IMG/VR virus record: IMGVR_UViG_3300028581_002462
Coordinates: 1 to 46,908 of that record
Reading direction: 5' to 3' (one strand)
Source of the DNA: a virus
Lineage: Duplodnaviria; Caudoviricetes
DNA: 46,908 bases
Both the position numbers and the translations under genes were made by a program. Shown piece by piece: positions 8,329 to 46,908 of this stretch. The notes below the pieces were generated by a model. The model was given only the letters and a program-made list of their open reading frames with translations. It did not search any database and had not been told where the DNA came from. Every line of letters starts with the position of its first letter. Position 1 is the stretch's first letter.

Positions 8329-8991
8329 ATGGGAACTGGTAAAGATTTACAAGATCAGGAAGATGCATTAATGCAGAGATATGAAGAAGAGCAAATGCAA
8401 CAAATGCAAATGCAACAAGCACAAAATGTTAGTCCTTATGCTTCTACAATGTTTCAAGGACAAAATAAACAAAATTTAGTTGAATGGCAGTTAGATTTTA
8501 AAAATGAATTAGATGATATTGAAAGACTTCTTAGATGTGATATAATGGTTAATGATACAAATGGAAATCAAATATGGATAAGGAATCCTAATCCTGAAAG
8601 AATTATATTTAATGATATTGGAGTAAATGATATTTTAAGAGAGATTAGAATGTTTCTTAATAAAAATAAAGTTTTATCTAATTATGGTGTTGAAGAAATA
8701 AAACCTAGAATTAAAATGATTGGACATGAAATTAGAATTTTAATTTATAATAATTATGAACATTATGGAATGGATAACGAATATAAACAGAATAATTATT
8801 CTATGATTGTATTAACTATTTTATCTATGATTGAAGATAGTTATAGAAGAGCTATTAATGGATTGGAACGAAAAGATTTAAATTCTTTTCGCACGGTAGT
8901 TCAGCAAGAACCTTTAGCTCAACCAATGCCATACGGTACAGGAATATCATCTCAAGGAAAAAAATCTATTTTAAAACCGTGGACTTGGTAA
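8329..8991 (+). CDS. Hypothetical protein in the late operon
   Basis: 220-aa ORF with Q/M-rich N-terminus; ends immediately before the next gene. Confidence 0.75.
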   Translation: MGTGKDLQDQEDALMQRYEEEQMQQMQMQQAQNVSPYASTMFQGQNKQNLVEWQLDFKNELDDIERLLRCDIMVNDTNGNQIWIRNPNPERIIFNDIGVNDILREIRMFLNKNKVLSNYGVEEIKPRIKMIGHEIRILIYNNYEHYGMDNEYKQNNYSMIVLTILSMIEDSYRRAINGLERKDLNSFRTVVQQEPLAQPMPYGTGISSQGKKSILKPWTW

Positions 8992-21819: not shown

Positions 21820-22155
21820 ATGTTTAAAAAATTACTTAATAACATCAAAGCAGTTTTCGGCTTAACAGCTGTTCAACAGTTCTTTGCTGTAATATTAGGT
21901 ATAGCTCTTTTAGCTTATGTAATTGTTATCATAATGGGAACATTATCCAATGCTTCAATTGTACCAACTGGCAGCTTAGCTGCTAATCAGACAAATTCAA
22001 TCTTGGCTAATGTATCTACTGGAATAACAGGGTTCTTCTCTGCTATCAATCCAGTTTATGCAATTCTAGCTATCCTAGTTATTATCCTAGTATTAGTTGT
22101 ATTAGTAAGAGTTGTTCAAGCTCCATCTAGTGGTGCTGCATCACCTTCTTTGTAA
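21820..22155 (+). CDS. Putative major capsid protein, spindle-virus-type hydrophobic hairpin
   Basis: Basic leader ending KA|VFGL; two long hydrophobic helices with an N-X-S/T-bearing linker; own promoter, SD and terminator. Confidence 0.7.
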   Translation: MFKKLLNNIKAVFGLTAVQQFFAVILGIALLAYVIVIIMGTLSNASIVPTGSLAANQTNSILANVSTGITGFFSAINPVYAILAILVIILVLVVLVRVVQAPSSGAASPSL

Positions 22156-22176
22156 GGTTCTCTAACTAATAGAATT

Positions 22177-22229
22177 GTCAGGAACGCTGACCTGCCGTTT
22201 CTAACTCAAGCAGGTTAATTTTATTTTTC
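22177..22229 (+). terminator. Hairpins plus T-tract after the capsid gene
   Basis: gtcag/ctgac and cctgc/gcagg stems followed by ttaatttttattttt. Confidence 0.5.
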
Positions 22230-22278
22230 GGAGTTGACAGAATCTCCCTACACAAAACTGTCACCTTATATTTACAAA

Positions 22279-22452
22279 ATGCCACTTAACAGAATGGGAA
22301 GAAAAATTGAAAGAGAAATGGGAGAGCATAGTTGTAAAAAATCTTCTAAATCACAATTAGTTCTTTATGGAAATAGAGCAAAAATGAGACATATGTTTAT
22401 ACATTTAAATAAAGAGCATCCTTCTTTAAAAGGACATATGAAGCTTAAATAA
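22279..22452 (+). CDS. Small basic protein
   Basis: MPLNRMGRKIERE..., K/R/H-rich; ATG 22279 preferred over TTG 22234. Confidence 0.55.
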   Translation: MPLNRMGRKIEREMGEHSCKKSSKSQLVLYGNRAKMRHMFIHLNKEHPSLKGHMKLK

Positions 22453-22472
22453 GTACTGAAAAGGAGGTTTAA

Positions 22473-23075
22473 ATGAAAAAAATAATAAATCTCAACAAAG
22501 ATAAACGAGGAATTTTCGGTTTAACAGCTGTTCAACAATTTTTTGCAATAATTTTATCAATAGCTTTACTGGCTTATGTAATTGTAACTATTATGGGTAC
22601 ATTATCTAATGCTAATATTGTTCCATTAAATACTGTAGCTATGAGTGGAAGTGTTGCTAATGAAACTTTAACATCCGTTACTGAAGATTTACATTATGTT
22701 TCCAAGTCTACATTACCTAATTTTGATATGACGGTTTGTATAACTTGCGTACTTAATGCCACAAATAATGTTGTCATTCCTGCTGCTGATTGGGGATATA
22801 CTGGTCCTGGTGGAGTAAGAGTAACTAATTCTACAAGTATATTTAATAATACTAATTGGAAAGTAAGTTACACATATACTTACACTGCTGACAGTCCACA
22901 AGTAGCAAATGCTAATTCAATATTAGGAAATGTCTCAACAGGTATCACTGGCTTCTTTGGAGCAATCAACCCAGTATATGCAATCTTAGCAATATTAGTA
23001 ATAATATTAGTTTTAGTTGTATTAGTAAGAGTTGTTCAAGCACCAAATGGAATAAATGAATCTGCCTCGTTATAA
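22473..23075 (+). CDS. Capsid paralogue with inserted beta-rich domain
   Basis: Leader KRG|IFGLTAVQQFF; both helices nearly identical to 21820-22155; ~90-aa insertion in the loop. Confidence 0.75.
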   Translation: MKKIINLNKDKRGIFGLTAVQQFFAIILSIALLAYVIVTIMGTLSNANIVPLNTVAMSGSVANETLTSVTEDLHYVSKSTLPNFDMTVCITCVLNATNNVVIPAADWGYTGPGGVRVTNSTSIFNNTNWKVSYTYTYTADSPQVANANSILGNVSTGITGFFGAINPVYAILAILVIILVLVVLVRVVQAPNGINESASL

Positions 23076-23573: not shown

Positions 23574-24035
23574 TTAACTATTAAATTTGTAAAACCAATA
23601 AACTAAATAAGTTAATGTAATTGCTGGTAAAAATGGTACTTCTTTTCCTTTAAGCAAAACTTTTGCAAATAATCCATAGATTGTTCCAATTATTAAGAAA
23701 AATATTAAGAAAAACCACATACTAACCATTGTATTTGCAAATCCTTGAGTTAAACCCATAAAAGCAATAATTCCTGGTAAAATCTTAACATCTGCACCTC
23801 CAAGTACTCCTCTGTTCCATAGGAATAGGGCTAAAACGAACATAAGCACTGCAAGAGTGAGATTTAACCAAAACTGTGGTGAAATACACATCCATATCAA
23901 AGATAGGGCTAGAAACAAGAATATTGGCTTATTTTCAATTTCAGATTTCTTGTAATCAATGTAAGTAAAATAACATAAAGCTCCAGCTCCTAAAAGAAAT
24001 GAAGTATTGCTTATTATTGTAATTATATCTATCAT
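23574..24035 (-). CDS. A24-family prepilin/prearchaellin peptidase
   Basis: Polytopic membrane protein with first Asp in YIDYK, GGADVK motif and C-terminal VPFLPAI. Confidence 0.9.
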   Translation of the reverse strand: MIDIITIISNTSFLLGAGALCYFTYIDYKKSEIENKPIFLFLALSLIWMCISPQFWLNLTLAVLMFVLALFLWNRGVLGGADVKILPGIIAFMGLTQGFANTMVSMWFFLIFFLIIGTIYGLFAKVLLKGKEVPFLPAITLTYLVYWFYKFNS

Positions 24036-26693: not shown

Positions 26694-27059
26694 TCATTCT
26701 CTCAATCCCTCCAAAGTCTTTATTTCTTCTTGGACCTGTTTATGTTCTAATTTAGTAAAACTTAATCTTCCTTTAGTTACTGAATAATAATTATCTGGAG
26801 TTTTAGCTAAACACATATAACCAAAAATCCAAGTTAAATATTCTTCTTCATTAATAATGGTTCTTAAATAATATTTCTTTTCATCTATTAATATTTGGAT
26901 TTGGGCTTGGCGTATCTTTTTACATTGAGGACATAAGATTAAAGCTTCTCTTATAATATCTCCACAATTACCTTCAAATGGTTCTGGAGAAACAGTTTTA
27001 CACATTCCTTGTAATAACTTTCCACATCCTTGAGGGGATAAGATTGATTGATGTATCAT
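26694..27059 (-). CDS. Hypothetical Cys-rich protein
   Basis: GCGK...CG...LCPQC; ATG overlaps the upstream methyltransferase stop. Confidence 0.65.
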   Translation of the reverse strand: MIHQSILSPQGCGKLLQGMCKTVSPEPFEGNCGDIIREALILCPQCKKIRQAQIQILIDEKKYYLRTIINEEEYLTWIFGYMCLAKTPDNYYSVTKGRLSFTKLEHKQVQEEIKTLEGLRE

Positions 27060-27637
27060 TTTGAGTTCTCCTGAAAGGTTTGCTCTTTCAACTCCATCAT
27101 TTCTGCTTGGGAGGAATGCCGTGCTTCAGATTGCATAGCTTCCTGCTTGACCTCCTCTGGAATTTTAATAAAGCAAAACCAGTTAGTCGGTATTTTACTC
27201 CCATTAGGATGACCAAATAAAGGTTGTTCTTTCAAAACTTCTAATATCTCTTTTCTTTTTATACTGCTTTCGTTCCACTTGAATATTAAAATACCCCAAT
27301 CCTCTAAAACTCGCATACATTCATCAAATCCCTTTTTAATATCTTCTTTCCAAGTTTCTTTATTAAGAGTTCCATAAGTTCTTGTCATCCTACATCCATC
27401 TGGTTTTCCAATTAAATGAGGCGGGTCCATCACAACTAATTTAAAACTTTTATCAGCAAATTCTAACTTTCTGAAATCCATAATCATATCAGGATGTAAT
27501 TCTCTATTCTGCCTGTTATCTATAAATCCTTTATCATACTCACGATTATCTATAAAAATTGTATTTGGTTGCCTTTTATCAAACCAAAACATTCTGCTTC
27601 CACAACAAGCATCCAATATTTTTTTGTTTGTTTCCAT
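27056..27637 (-). CDS. SAM-dependent (probable amino-DNA) methyltransferase
   Basis: ILDACCGSRMFW motif I; DPPH motif IV; LIFKW. Confidence 0.88.
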   Translation of the reverse strand: METNKKILDACCGSRMFWFDKRQPNTIFIDNREYDKGFIDNRQNRELHPDMIMDFRKLEFADKSFKLVVMDPPHLIGKPDGCRMTRTYGTLNKETWKEDIKKGFDECMRVLEDWGILIFKWNESSIKRKEILEVLKEQPLFGHPNGSKIPTNWFCFIKIPEEVKQEAMQSEARHSSQAEMMELKEQTFQENSK

Positions 27638-27678
27638 AGTTCGTTAAGATACCCTACCCTTTAGGGTATGGGAGTATG
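27056..27678 (-). mobile_element. Non-autonomous IS200/605-end-flanked cassette 2
   Basis: Left hairpin catactcccataccctaaagggtagggtat before the ATG; cggcattcctcccaagc near the 3' end. Confidence 0.75.
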
Positions 27679-28254
27679 TCATTTCTTCTCCTGAAAGGTT
27701 TGCTCTTTCAACTCCATCATTTCTGCTTGGGAGGAATGCCGTGCTACCTCTATAAAATTTAGTTGATTAGGTAAACTAAGTTTCCAACAGAACCAAGCAG
27801 TTTGAAACCAAGCTCCTGAACCTTTGCCTGAAGGAGTTTCAAAATTAAATCTCTTATTAGGAATTATTAAACTTATTCCATATTTTCTATAAAGTTCTCC
27901 TCTTTTCTTTCCTTCTAAGGCTGTTAAAGGCATAAGCAAAGCAAAAGGTTTTCCTATCTCAAAACATCTCTGTAAAAATTCTTCTTTTTTTGAATATGGG
28001 GGATTAGTTACAATACAATTAAATTCTTCTTTGTTTAATCCTAAATCTTTATTCAAAAAATCTTTAAATGGTTCTCCAATAACTTTGAAACCTTCTTTTT
28101 CTAAGTGTTTTGCTAAACTGCCTTTTCCCCAAGCACATTCCCAAAGAGTCCAGTCTTTCTTTAGATAAGGCAATAAAATATCTATTGCTTCTTTTGGAGT
28201 TCCAAACTCGTCACTCCTTCCATTCATCTGTATTTTAAGTTTTTTCTTTTCCAT
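27679..28254 (-). CDS. N6-adenine-type DNA methyltransferase
   Basis: DEFGTP, WECAWGKG, TNPPYS; paralogue of 41922-42484. Confidence 0.88.
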   Translation of the reverse strand: MEKKKLKIQMNGRSDEFGTPKEAIDILLPYLKKDWTLWECAWGKGSLAKHLEKEGFKVIGEPFKDFLNKDLGLNKEEFNCIVTNPPYSKKEEFLQRCFEIGKPFALLMPLTALEGKKRGELYRKYGISLIIPNKRFNFETPSGKGSGAWFQTAWFCWKLSLPNQLNFIEVARHSSQAEMMELKEQTFQEKK

Positions 28255-28295
28255 AGTTCGTTAAGATACCCTGCCCTTTAGGGTATGGGAGTATG
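27679..28295 (-). mobile_element. Non-autonomous IS200/605-end-flanked cassette 1
   Basis: 60-bp repeats 27631-27690 / 28248-28307 (1 mismatch) and 27066-27125 / 27686-27745 (identical). Confidence 0.75.
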
Positions 28296-28346
28296 TCATT
28301 TCTTCTCTTTTAGTATTAGGATTTACACCTAGCATTAAACCACTTT

Positions 28347-31500: not shown

Positions 31501-32340
31501 TTATTTTACCTCTCCCATTATTCTAGCGATATTTCTTCTTTCATCTTGTGTAAATATTAAAGAGGATCCATAGTGTAAGATATAAGTATTAACATCGTGG
31601 CCCATTCTATAACATAGTTCTCCTATCTCTTTATTATATGCCCTCATCCACATTCCATAAGTCTTTCTAATATTATGGGGTGAAAAATTATACCAATCTG
31701 CAATACCTGCTTTCTTTAATTTTCTCTTAAAAAGTTGTGAATAGGCAGTAACTTTTGAAGTATAATACTTTTCTCGCTTATCATTATCTAGATCATTATA
31801 ATTTATAGGAAGTTTAGAGTTATCTAAAAATATATAACTTTCAGGATTAATAGTTTTTCCCCTAATAAAAGATTTATATTCAGATAAAAATTCTGAACTA
31901 ATAAAGAAACTTCTTGTCTTACCAGTAGCAAAGAAATTCTTTTTAGCTTTTCTTTGTTTAACTATTGTAAAAGTTACTGTTTCTCTTTCGGTATCTATAT
32001 CCTTATATCTTAAATTAAGTACTTCCATTATTCTGCCTCCAGTATGCAAACAAGTTAAAAAAAAGAATCTATGTTCTTTATTCTTAACTAAATTAATAAA
32101 GGAAGTCCATTCATCTGGAAAAAAATATCTATGTCTATCATTTCTAACTGTATATTTATAACCTCTTGAATTTTTTGCAGTTAATAATCCTGTAGTTTCA
32201 CTAGGTTTTAAATTTAAGATCTTCTTACCACAAGTTGGACAAATTAAAAAGTTTTCTACTTCTTGATAATTATGAATATGATATTTAGTAGTTAAAGATA
32301 CACCTTCTTGTTTTATATTATCTCTTTGTATTTGTTCCAT
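31501..32340 (-). CDS. Tyrosine recombinase/integrase
   Basis: TGGRIMEV (R), PHNIRK (HxxR), MGH and HYG (Y) motifs; N-terminal CPTC. Confidence 0.9.
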   Translation of the reverse strand: MEQIQRDNIKQEGVSLTTKYHIHNYQEVENFLICPTCGKKILNLKPSETTGLLTAKNSRGYKYTVRNDRHRYFFPDEWTSFINLVKNKEHRFFFLTCLHTGGRIMEVLNLRYKDIDTERETVTFTIVKQRKAKKNFFATGKTRSFFISSEFLSEYKSFIRGKTINPESYIFLDNSKLPINYNDLDNDKREKYYTSKVTAYSQLFKRKLKKAGIADWYNFSPHNIRKTYGMWMRAYNKEIGELCYRMGHDVNTYILHYGSSLIFTQDERRNIARIMGEVK

Positions 32341-34857: not shown

Positions 34858-35883
34858 TTATAGCCCCTCTTCCTCTTCTTCTGGGCCACAATCATCAATT
34901 TGTTGTCCCTCTACCATAGTAGTAATATTGATGGTGTCAGCAGAACCTTCAAAACCTTCATTTCCTAGAGAATTCTCTTCAATTTCTGGCTTTTTATCAA
35001 TTTTACTCCATCTTTCCACAGTTCTTACACTAACTCCCAAAGCTTTTGCCCAATCTTCAGCACATTCAATCTTTAAATCTTTTATATTGTGTCTAAGCTT
35101 TCCAAATGCTGATTTAAAATTATTAAAATCTTGTTCCATCTTGCTTTCCTTCTTGCCTTTCACTTCATCTACCTTTCCAATTGAATTAATTGCCAGATCT
35201 TTCTGATGATGATAGTCTTTCATGGTAGCATGAGGCTTACCCTCCACGGAAAAGTCCATTAAGTCAAAGTATTTATCCATAACTTCTGGAAAATGTCCAC
35301 GAAAGGCAGTACATTTTTTATAACTTCTTATCTTTGCCTTCATATAATCATTCCAAAGTGTCTCTAAGCTTTTCTTTTTAATATAAACAAACCTTCCCAT
35401 ATCAATTTCATCTTTAGAATACATATGAACCATTCCTAAACATCTATCAACCACAATATACTCTCCAAACTTCCAGAACTTAGTGAAGTTTATTATAAAC
35501 ATATGCTGTCTCTTTCTAATTGTCATAGCCAACCTTAAAAGATCTCTACCAATTCTTTTTAATTGATCAGTAGATAAAGAATCTAATGAAGGTTCATCCC
35601 AGATCATGATTTGTTTCTTAGTTCTTTGTGCATGATTGATTAATGCTTGAAGCCTAAAGAATATATGTGCATCTCTACCTGTCTTTTGTTTAACATAATT
35701 GGCCATAGCAACGGCAGAATTACTCTTACCAGATCCCTCAGAGCCTTCCACTTGTAACCATGCATCTAATACTGGAGTCTCTCGTGTTATCCTTTCAATC
35801 ATTATATCTAGCTTCTTAACCAATTCATTCTCTAGATTATAACTGTAACCATTACATTGTATTAACATTTTGTTTCTCCTCAA
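34858..35883 (-). CDS. P-loop ATPase with C-terminal HTH (candidate morphogenesis ATPase)
   Basis: Walker A GSEGSGKS; Walker B IMIWDE; IRKR; HTH WAKALGVSVRTVERW. Likely ATG start at 35868. Confidence 0.85.
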   Translation of the reverse strand: MRRNKMLIQCNGYSYNLENELVKKLDIMIERITRETPVLDAWLQVEGSEGSGKSNSAVAMANYVKQKTGRDAHIFFRLQALINHAQRTKKQIMIWDEPSLDSLSTDQLKRIGRDLLRLAMTIRKRQHMFIINFTKFWKFGEYIVVDRCLGMVHMYSKDEIDMGRFVYIKKKSLETLWNDYMKAKIRSYKKCTAFRGHFPEVMDKYFDLMDFSVEGKPHATMKDYHHQKDLAINSIGKVDEVKGKKESKMEQDFNNFKSAFGKLRHNIKDLKIECAEDWAKALGVSVRTVERWSKIDKKPEIEENSLGNEGFEGSADTINITTMVEGQQIDDCGPEEEEEGL

Positions 35884-41054: not shown

Positions 41055-41361
41055 TGGAAAAAGTATATAACACCAAATGTAAATATTTAAATTTATGTAG
41101 ATATTGCGATCATAAACAAATAGATAAAATGTTTACTAATCTTAATTATGATTCCATTTATCATAGTATTAATTATTATAACTAATTTAGACAGAAAACC
41201 TTTTGTTGTGAAAAGATTTGTCCCTTAATAAGAGTAACAATTAAATTTGAAGAAGTTATTAAAAACAGAAAGGTTTATAAAGGTGGAGGTATTAAATAAA
41301 TCATGGAGAAAGATAAATGAAATACTCTCATGCCCTAAAGGGCAGAGTATCTAACTAAAAC

Positions 41362-41922
41362 ATGGTAAAACACGAATACAAACATTTCAATCCGTTAGAA
41401 CATCAAGTAGATGTTAAAATGGCGAAAGTTAAAATTAGTTCTCACTCAAAGCATAATATTAACTATCACATAGTTTTCATTCCAAAATATAGAAAGAAAG
41501 TTTTAATGGGCGATAAATTAAAAGAAATTTTAACTACAATTATCAAAGGACAATGTGAGGATTTAGGAGTTGAACTTTTGGCTTTAGAAATTATGCCAGA
41601 CCATGTTCATATTTTTGTCGGAGCGAAACCAACTCATACCCCTTGTAAAATAGTCAATCAAATTAAAGGAAATACTTCAAGGCAAATTAGACTTATATTC
41701 CAAGACATTAGATGTTTAGGATACGAACAAAAGTCTAACACTTGGAGAGGATTTGATAGTCTTTGGGCAGATGGTTATTATTGTGGAAGTGCTGGACATG
41801 TAAGTCAAGATAGTGTTAGAAGATATATTGAAGAACAACAAGGTAAGAAAGTCTTTGAGTATGATATTTATGAATGTCCAGAGGAACTAAAAGGTCAATT
41901 AAAAATAGGAGATTTTGTATAA
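41362..41922 (+). CDS. tnpA: IS200/IS605 Y1 HUH transposase
   Basis: YHIVFIPKYR, DHVH (HUH), IKGNTS, LWADGYY and VRRYIEEQ (catalytic Tyr). Confidence 0.96.
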   Translation: MVKHEYKHFNPLEHQVDVKMAKVKISSHSKHNINYHIVFIPKYRKKVLMGDKLKEILTTIIKGQCEDLGVELLALEIMPDHVHIFVGAKPTHTPCKIVNQIKGNTSRQIRLIFQDIRCLGYEQKSNTWRGFDSLWADGYYCGSAGHVSQDSVRRYIEEQQGKKVFEYDIYECPEELKGQLKIGDFV

Positions 41923-42484
41923 TGCAGATGCCACCAAAGAAAATAGGCAGTTCAGATGATTTTTATACTCCAAATAGTGCAATCAATCCAATAATTTCAT
42001 ACTTAAACAAAGAATGGAAAATCTGGGAATGTTGTTCTGGAACTGGAAATATAGTTAAATTTTTGAGAGAGAGAGAGAGATGAATGTTTTTGGAACAGAT
42101 ATAAAAGAGGGAGAAGATTTTTTAACTTCAAACAGAAAAGATTTTGATTGTATAATAACCAACCCTCCATTTTCATTAAAAGATAAGTTTTTAAAGAAAT
42201 GCTTTGAGTCTGAAAAACCTTTTGCAATGCTCTTACCACTAACGGCATTAGAGGGAAAATTTAGACAATCTCTATATAAGAAATATGGAGTTCAAGTTAT
42301 TTTATTTAATAAGAGAGTAAATTATCAAGTACATCAAAACAAAAACTCTTGTTGGTTTGCGAGTGCTTGGTTTTGTTATAAACTTAATCTACCTAAAGAC
42401 TTGAATTTTGTTGAACTAAACGACGGAAACAACGGCATTCCTCCCAAGCCTAAAGTCTTAGGTATCCTGCCTACGATTATATGA
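41922..42484 (+). pseudogene. N6-adenine-type DNA methyltransferase frameshifted at (GA)8; possibly phase-variable
   Basis: DDFYTP/WECCSGTG half and TNPPFS half lie in different frames; removing one GA fuses them. Confidence 0.85.
42065..42080 (+). repeat. (GA)8 microsatellite
   Basis: ttttgagagagagagagagatga. Confidence 0.95.
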
Positions 42485-46752: not shown

Positions 46753-46908
46753 ATGGTTAATGAAAACTATTCTGTAACACTTGATTCTGAAATAGTTGAA
46801 GAAGCAAAAAAGTATTATACTGATTTTGGTGGAAAGCTTTCTCCATTGTTAAACAAACTATTAAAAAACTGGAATGTTATCCAAAGAAGTAATGCTAAGA
46901 ACTTCCTA
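46753..46908 (+). CDS. 5' part of the junction-spanning RHH-like protein
   Basis: ATG at 46753; frame continues through position 1 to the stop at 205. Confidence 0.7.
   Translation, partial: MVNENYSVTLDSEIVEEAKKYYTDFGGKLSPLLNKLLKNWNVIQRSNAKNFL
46773..46908. repeat. Terminal direct repeat, right copy
   Basis: Matches 1-137 with a 1-bp deletion. Confidence 0.97.

Follow-up and report, generated by a model that had tools for sequence, protein, structure and literature searches.

The window analyzed here, which comprises all 46,908 nucleotides of the virus record IMGVR_UViG_3300028581_002462, carries two neighboring DNA methyltransferase genes, each held in a cassette that lacks a transposase gene and is bounded by ends of the IS200/IS605 type (cassettes A and B). 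We consider it probable, at roughly 0.75, that the pair belongs to a family of such cassettes whose intact members are excised and re-inserted in single-stranded form by the transposase TnpA, and that the tandem itself came about by duplication and recombination. An earlier note on this DNA had proposed a cassette system, driven by an HUH transposase, that stacks methyltransferases. For the family this largely holds, as unrelated cargo, new sites and stacks are all found; the tandem of the window, however, has no stack junction, and some half of the cargo cannot be recognized as methyltransferase.

The Methyltransferase Pair and Its Ends

Cassette A encodes a 191-aa enzyme on the minus strand (27679..28254; phrog_799, E 4e-38; NPPY motif) and cassette B, on the same strand, a 193-aa enzyme (27056..27637; phrog_954, E 2.5e-64; DPPH motif). 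The two proteins are alignable over their last ~50 residues only, which are mostly a common tail. That these dissimilar genes directly follow hairpins matching the one ahead of the window's tnpA gene, as first claimed in the earlier note, is confirmed: the hairpin motif is present in exactly three copies in the window (27648-27666, 28265-28283, and 41333-41351). The same number of exact copies is found for a 17-mer at the far end of each unit (27105-27121, 27725-27741, and 42433-42449), and shuffled controls gave on average 0.03 copies of the hairpin motif and 0.02 of the 17-mer, with three copies reached in 0/100 shuffles. The tails that had been read from the 17-mer, ARHSSQA in the pair and GIPPKP in another frame in the tnpA element, are encoded as described.

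For reasons set out below, the hairpin is the right end (RE) and the 17-mer a fragment of the left end (LE). The RE of cassette A (28265..28299, plus strand) consists of the guide GATA, an 8-bp hairpin with a TTTA loop and a bulged T, and the predicted cleavage tetramer TCAT at 28296-28299, as read on the strand on which TnpA probably acts; read on the minus strand from its ATG it forms a 12-codon leader. The RE of cassette B (27648..27682, plus strand) has the same layout of GATA, hairpin and TCAT (27679-27682), and its minus-strand ATGA contains the stop codon of gene A. Covariation of the stems had been claimed for both cassettes. It is seen when cassette B is compared with the copy ahead of tnpA, TACCC/GGGTA and TGCCC/GGGCA being compensatory, but not in cassette A, whose hairpin is a hybrid of the two (TACCC/GGGCA, which pairs as a G.T wobble when the other strand is read); these mixed arms had been overlooked.

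The left ends of both cassettes are broken. In cassette A (27725..27741, plus strand) the 3' arm and the inner tail are left and the loop, 5' arm and guide are gone, and the LE of cassette B (27105..27121, plus strand) is broken at the same base. Scanning the window with end-model profiles gave three right-type ends, one whole left-type end, two half ones and nothing else; in the cassettes only model positions 5-44 of ~75 are matched, so that an intact LE is absent from both. The protein tail of cargo A is read through the broken LE and on into the spacer behind it. A 6-bp hairpin in that spacer was considered as a substitute LE and rejected, as it does not match the end model. Since the window copies lack the guide and the LE hairpin they should not be excised, and we regard them as defective derivatives, likely stranded where they are. 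The suggestion that they are immobilized thus stands, with the polarity swapped: the broken end is the left and not the right one. Breaks like those of the pair also occur at three other loci (L035, L047, and L090). A close match to cassette A is locus L002, which is identical to it in 526/588 columns from just before the ATGA of the RE through the end of the 17-mer, has unrelated flanks, and runs on into a whole LE.

The tnpA-Bearing Element of the Window

The only complete pair of ends in the window encloses the element at 41317-42480. Its RE (41317..41351, minus strand, with TCAT at 41317-41320) is followed on the plus strand by a 186-aa Y1 HUH transposase (41362..41922) with the HVH and catalytic-Tyr motifs (PF01797, E 1.5e-34; NF033573 above cut-off), which aligns to solved IS200/IS605 transposases. 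Its LE is intact (42433..42480, minus strand) with 14 nt, the guide GATA and an 8-bp hairpin, and the target TCAT just outside, at 42481-42484, provides the ATGA at the start of the following gene. This transposase would act in cis on its own element and only in trans on the methyltransferase pair.

Between tnpA and the LE lies a methyltransferase gene missed by the earlier note (41922..42484, plus strand; phrog_799), 56% identical to that of cassette A over 100 residues and split into two frames, 41922-42083 and 42080-42484. The frame is broken in a (GA)8 run at 42065-42080, with an ATGA overlap joining the halves, and contigs of runs X1, X3, and X4 cover the run without gaps; the out-of-frame run could be phase variation or decay. 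No joint skipping the element was seen when contigs of four runs were aligned on it. Joints with sides of just 20-30 nt, in these alignments and in those on the methyltransferase pair, were not counted, and fit other cassettes of the same lakes.

A Family of Cassettes with Varied Cargo

A search with one strict RE pattern, in which the metagenome scan covered 15/64 parts, returned 9 viral loci, at least 121 metagenome loci (~520 estimated over all parts) and 14 GTDB loci. Including the window there are 146 distinct RE copies, mostly on virus-like contigs, some of which represent one insertion in different assemblies; a Poribacteria locus with a TTGA start (L162) was excluded from the cargo counts and from the RE alignment. 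An LE and an RE are found in fixed order and orientation in 34/42 long loci, the element is 184-1407 bases long where an LE was found, and in most copies the RE and the start of the first gene are 6-15 nt apart. The earlier note had named, as a finding that would speak against it, ends that occur around tnpA/tnpB only; this is not so, as they enclose many unrelated cargo genes.

Among 127 scorable copies the cargo comprises 62 methyltransferases of eight families (N6/N4 24, C5 11, phrog_799 9, phrog_954 6, MT-A70 5, Dam 4, and two others 3), 6 tnpA genes, one radical SAM protein, one TBP-like protein and 57 unlabelled stretches; in complete cassettes 25/56 are methyltransferases. As labels were propagated by BLAST from a local set, some of the unlabelled cargo may be modification enzymes. 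The unlabelled share suggests a general gene-delivery vehicle with methyltransferases as common riders.

Some loci deserve separate mention. The non-methyltransferase cargo includes a radical SAM gene (L003:2497-3396), a TBP-like gene (L051:454-804) and a weak ASCH-like match (L079:548-799). One 33-kb contig of a metagenome-assembled genome (MAG) carries at least four REs with different cargo (L157, L158, L159, and L167), and L082/L083 and L037 hold two cassettes each. LEs that lie behind small genes and have no RE by the pattern used (L013, L014, L018, L020, and L023) probably represent other end subtypes.

Strand, Guide, and Target of the Ends

Read on the strand opposite to the genes, the end behind the cargo consists of TCAT, 14 bases, GATA and a hairpin, and the end ahead of the cargo of GATA, a hairpin, 6 bases and TCAT. 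This layout matches the left and right ends of IS200/IS605 elements, which makes the hairpin before the gene the RE and the 17-mer a fragment of the LE; judged by sequence, the ends are of IS200/IS605 type and common to the tnpA element, as the earlier note had correctly recognized. They belong to the N|ATGA type and are probably read on the strand opposite the genes. Both the family and the tnpA element have a subterminal hairpin at each end and no terminal inverted repeats.

The stems are well conserved as pairs. In 42 distinct REs 94.6% of 336 cells are paired, with 43 double changes, a level reached by 0/500 shuffles and by none of the slid controls (best 70.5%), it being understood that the invariant letters of the alignment were set by the search pattern and that related copies inflate covariation; in 20 LEs 89.4% of 160 cells are paired. 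Among 31 distinct RE arm types, mismatches on the gene strand are of the C.A kind, equivalent to G.T on its complement, in 16 cases vs. 6 for G.T, an asymmetry that favors the antisense strand. The LE folds better on the antisense strand in 54/56 cases.

The guide GATA and the tetramer TCAT are present at both ends and obey the guide-tetramer pairing rule of IS200/IS605 elements. The one system compared, IS608 with AAAG/TTAC, is consistent with this rule. Its LE is inserted 3' of TTAC, and the guide that recognizes this tetramer, AAAG, lies 5' of the foot of the hairpin (PMC5027513). For the related IscB-encoding elements, Kapitonov et al. (2016) describe insertion at N|ATGA, with iscB in the orientation opposite to tnpB (PMC4810608), and in the work of Meers et al. 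the RE lies upstream of iscB and the TAM is TTCAT (bioRxiv 10.1101/2023.03.14.532601). Our LE pattern search also returned five loci with IscB-like genes, labelled by eye from a PLMP-type start. These loci (L010, L012, L017, L019, and L022) appear to be viral IscB-like elements with a cassette-type LE, and L019 has two RE-like hairpins in a row.

ATGA is found at 145/146 REs, even though its A is not part of the search pattern, and LEs are followed by ATGA in 48/56 cases and by ATAA in 5. The ATG of the ATGA behind the LE opens a frame of at least 40 codons in 40/49 cases, against 515/1419 for other ATGA, and the TGA at the RE closes an upstream frame in 52/133, against 145/1419. The RE forms a leader of 12-14 codons in 122/145 copies, which is partly a consequence of sequence conservation, and the cargo most often starts with ATGG (116/137). 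In 48/54 copies the cargo stop codon falls at one of three places, namely the left hairpin (33), the target ATGA (9) or the tail (6). Exact boundaries on one side are seen at L101, L110, L066, and L090/L105. The pattern is one in which insertion would join the cargo to an operon, with the upstream stop and the downstream start both kept.

Movement, Stacking, and Exchange

Whether the ends travel with their cargo was judged from near-identical cargo (85-99%). In all 13/13 filtered pairs the upstream flanks are at background (0.34-0.44, vs. 0.38 +/- 0.04), and the pair for which both flanks were available, the non-methyltransferase cassettes L037/L095, differs on both sides. In L101 the cassette sits at an ATGA within the 3' end of a tnpA gene that is whole elsewhere. 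Exact stacks, in which the tail of one LE is joined straight to the ATGA of the next RE, occur at six loci (L056, L069, L074, L101, L135, and L164), the second unit of L074 being a tnpA element; L048, flagged by a regular expression, was dropped on inspection by eye. The RE-LE junction sequence was seen only as such stack junctions. Exchange of cargo at a fixed place is indicated by identical 150-nt flanks around different cargo in L108/L128 (an N6/N4 vs. a C5 enzyme), L109/L127 and L031/L141. The repeats in the flanks near L045, L066, L092, and L110 represent paralogous small genes and no duplication of the target.

Remnants of tnpA persist in cargo-only copies (L003, L061, L066, and L116), and from these we infer that cargo-only copies descend from tnpA elements by deletion; the methyltransferase of L081 carries the N-terminus of TnpA.

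The mechanism that we favor would run as follows. TnpA would act on the strand opposite the genes, where the guide GATA selects TCAT at both ends. On the gene strand this tetramer reads ATGA, and as the element's own RE carries an ATGA, one ATGA would stand on each side after insertion. An upstream overlapping stop and a downstream start would thereby survive, and the cargo would enter the operon behind a short leader frame, with its tail encoded by the LE. As the target stays beside the LE, stacking follows from the mechanism: a second element may land there and give an exact end-to-end stack. Cargo-only cassettes would arise by internal deletion of tnpA elements and later acquire or swap viral genes by recombination in the conserved ends, and loss of the left hairpin would fix a cargo in place. 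Methyltransferases would be retained as a putative shield of the viral DNA; orphan viral methyltransferases are known to protect against restriction. An anti-restriction role is likely by analogy, the direct basis for the function of the enzymes here being their family assignment.

Several observations weigh against this account, in addition to the bias of the RE alignment and the comparison of the guide rule with a single system, IS608, both given above. No two-sided empty site was found for the 53 complete cassettes searched against the collected loci, and exact excision is therefore putative. A search for relatives of the genes flanking the pair returned no loci. The folding energy of the RE favors neither strand (antisense lower in 56/146), no LE was detectable for 8/42 REs with at least 1500 bases available, and 57/127 cargo stretches match no labelled family. 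An end-encoded tail was found by regular expression in only 5/120 of the closest homologs of methyltransferase A, with two more that look decayed by eye; these genes thus mostly occur without the ends, and the cargo would be drawn from a larger free pool. Finally, the absence of a TnpB motif next to tnpA in close relatives of the window TnpA (0/15 loci at 55% identity or more, vs. 37/78 more distant loci) comes from 15 loci of which only 8 extend for 1.4 kb in either direction and two represent a single contig.

Origin of the Tandem and Alternative Explanations

The cassettes of the window are separated by a 42-nt spacer that belongs to no element (27683..27724), lies mostly inside a 60-nt exact repeat, and shows GAGAA microhomology at the joint. 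The repeat, which had gone unnoticed in the earlier note (27066-27125 = 27686-27745), continues beyond the 17-mer into the non-element spacer. A second copy of the spacer (27060..27104) leads to an ATGA that provides both the stop of gene B and the start of the ORF at 26694-27059. GAGAA is present on both sides of the repeat unit, and a search of IMG/VR with the spacer pattern gave 0 matches. The LE breaks at the same base, the duplicated spacer and the lack of a stack junction all argue that the pair is not a stack made by TnpA, and is likely the product of a duplication and an exchange of cargo. In the simplest history, a single insertion would have lost its left hairpin, the unit would have been doubled by duplication or by unequal crossing at GAGAA, and recombination between the common ends would have replaced one of the two cargo genes; duplication and exchange may have come in either order. 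The mixed arms of the cassette A hairpin fit a crossover at that hairpin.

The alternative that survives best, which we nevertheless think unlikely, is an integron-like platform in which the hairpins serve as recombination sites where TnpA, or else the tyrosine integrase of the virus, exchanges cargo and adds more, the arrays being purpose-built. It would account for the left/right hybrid hairpins that stand between two successive genes in L093 and L165, for one-hairpin empty forms (L103 and L115), for hybrid arms in cassette A and L128, for the exchange of cargo at fixed flanks, and for the ATGG cargo start, which differs from the target tetramer. Against this, LE and RE share their loop and guide-side sequence, so homologous recombination or slippage would yield the same products; several exchanges start within the coding start and not at the hairpin (L109/L127); arrays reach two to three units at most; and the integrase gene at 31501-32340 adjoins no end. 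Some 900 nt after the RE, L093 also has an LE hairpin with extra sequence near the loop.

Stacking of both window cassettes by TnpA one after the other, followed by loss of a hairpin half from each, appears improbable. The family does contain exact stacks, a cognate tnpA is present in the same genome and both REs start at ATGA. True stacks, however, have an intact LE tail directly at the next ATGA, where the pair has 42 non-element bases, and the identical breaks and spacers (60 identical bases) would require the same deletion to have happened twice independently, in a sequence that was already repeated. Still less credible is the idea that the ends are passengers, i.e., remnants of selfish insertion sequences (IS) that landed at starts beside resident viral genes and never moved with them. 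Its attractions are that 115/120 relatives of methyltransferase A have no end-encoded tail, that some REs lack an LE, and that some LEs lie behind small genes with no matching RE; it is strongly contradicted by the same cargo at unrelated flanks in 13/13 pairs, by the match of cassette A and L002 from the RE ATGA through the 17-mer between unrelated flanks, by the fixed order and orientation of the ends, and by the cargo stop in the LE or on the target ATGA.

That the tandem is an assembly artefact, with alternative alleles of one site placed in a row, is the least probable of all: repeats common to both cassettes on both sides do break assembly graphs and no contig spans the whole stretch, but the cassettes are at flank depth in the lake runs X1-X3 (23.2, 21.1, 24.9, and 21.2 in X3), each at full and not half depth in X3 and X2, the joint has a microhomology of 5 nt, on which no assembler would make a join, and contigs cross from the spacer into A (X2 and X5) and from the RE of B into the spacer (X5, 55 nt). 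Given this depth and these contigs, the tandem is real DNA.

The Transposase Clade

Searches with the window TnpA returned 461 proteins with E values no higher than 1e-20. Identity is at least 59% in the best 120, of which 117 have the HUH motif and 113 the Tyr motif. No TnpB Pfam match was found among 42 window ORFs, and the clade of the window TnpA, judged by the 15 close loci described above, lacks TnpB. Cultured phages gave only distant matches to TnpA (<40%) and to the methyltransferase-coding regions, none of which extended to the ends. In the phylum of genome G002, 7/401 sampled genomes have a TnpA relative at ~60%, and most of these loci have an RE-like start upstream and varied genes behind tnpA. 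At L252-L261, from this phylum, the leader is longer and the cargo is often on the opposite strand; L253 looks by eye like a methyltransferase and a nuclease. In L170 a pair of C5-like methyltransferase genes, separated by an end-like tail, lies behind tnpA, and five loci (L076, L117, L136, L154, and L169) have a short conserved ORF between RE and tnpA that may encode a small DNA-binding regulator.

The Window and Its Probable Host

The window DNA is found in lake-water metagenomes, and no RNA dataset is listed as containing it. A 126-nt repeat is present at its two ends (1-126 and 46773-46898). Pfam matches among its 42 ORFs include a primase-polymerase/helicase, a tyrosine integrase, HNH nucleases and a prepilin-type peptidase; the listed coordinates of the peptidase and of a Zot-like viral ATPase are 23574-24035 and 34858-35883, and the nearest Atlas clusters of the ATPase are 72-100% viral. 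We take the window to be viral or virus-like. Neither a terminase nor a capsid family was matched (42 ORFs against Pfam, 24 against PHROGs), and with the terminal repeat, the peptidase and the ATPase this is possibly a non-tailed virus of DPANN archaea. The named relatives of the window TnpA come from Woesearchaeota and Nanoarchaeia, and of ten GTDB records with the end motif seven are archaeal MAGs, six of these named Woese-, Pace-, Nano- or Micrarchaeota (the remainder are Patescibacteria, Mycoplasmatota, and Poribacteria); on this basis the host of the window virus is likely to be a DPANN archaeon. Elsewhere in the window, adjoining ORFs at 21820-23075 contain repeats of 118 and 132 nt with ~78% identity, a local gene duplication, and the ORF at 8329-8991 had no usable Atlas match.

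Comparison with Known Systems and Significance

The nearest likeness is to the IscB-encoding ISC elements, such as the ISGst element of Meers et al. As the cassettes appear to do, these insert upstream of ATGA, have a gene read inward from the RE and a similar LE, and are mostly non-autonomous and moved in trans. The cassettes differ from them in lacking IscB and omega-RNA (an Rfam search of the window gave 0 matches) and in their variable cargo, which spans eight methyltransferase families, radical SAM, TBP-like and small genes. With the IS200 group, IS608, and ISDra2, the peel-and-paste elements (PMC5027513), they share the Y1 HUH TnpA, subterminal hairpins, a guide at the hairpin foot and, apparently, a fixed tetramer target, and with IS200 also tnpA without tnpB; in contrast to these, the cassette family has passenger genes between tnpA and the LE, and its target equals the RE tetramer (TCAT), so that stop/start overlaps would be preserved. 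The tnpB gene of IS605 and IS1341 is absent here. PATEs, the gene-less IS200/IS605 miniatures, likewise have ends without a transposase, and L103 and L115, with their one hairpin, can be counted among such forms, whereas the cassettes hold whole genes that take their first and last codons from the ends.

Movement of passenger genes by IS ends is familiar from transporter IS (tIS) and from IS91/ISCR, and ISCR also uses an HUH enzyme. These systems depend on DDE or Y2 rolling-circle enzymes, unlike the Y1 enzyme inferred here, and in the cassettes the cargo lies between both ends. Integron cassettes are single genes with short structured ends that are stacked, exchanged and expressed from outside, and the likeness to them, namely structured-end single-gene cassettes with stacking and exchange, is in outcome only: there is no linked integron integrase or fixed attI, ATGA sites are many and arrays are short. 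A phage-type integrase encoded 3 kb from the pair (31501-32340) was the one tyrosine recombinase detected. A more speculative idea, to which we give little more weight than to the integron-like platform itself, is that the family supplies viruses of DPANN archaea with an equivalent of the integron run by an HUH transposase. TnpA would then bring single-gene cassettes to start codons, stack them with operons left intact and itself exchange cargo at the hairpins, and the viruses would share a fast-turning library of DNA-modification genes against host restriction.

In their TnpB survey Altae-Tran et al. (2023) state that cargo of IS200/IS605 elements was previously not known, with rare cases only (PMC10691335). 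The string “methyl” is absent from the text of PMC10691335 and of PMC4810608. Bao and Jurka discuss methyltransferases within viral Mariner elements and not within ends of the present kind (PMC3627910). Among the paper listings and abstracts searched we found no published description of this element family, which ISfinder, specialist reviews or supplementary lists could contain. The cassettes apparently represent an undescribed cargo-carrying variant of IS200/IS605, real at the level of the family and stranded in the pair of the window.

IS200/IS605 elements are known to carry just TnpA and an RNA-guided nuclease; here a clade free of TnpB appears to carry many types of single genes between viruses, and about half of this cargo consists of DNA methyltransferases. 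With ATGA reversed in the target as well as in the RE tetramer, the stop and start codons of the operon would be spared on insertion, a simple way of adding a gene to a compact genome. The end-encoded protein tails may serve as a marker for gene flow among uncultured viruses, and the ends together with TnpA might yield a scarless tool for single-strand gene insertion.

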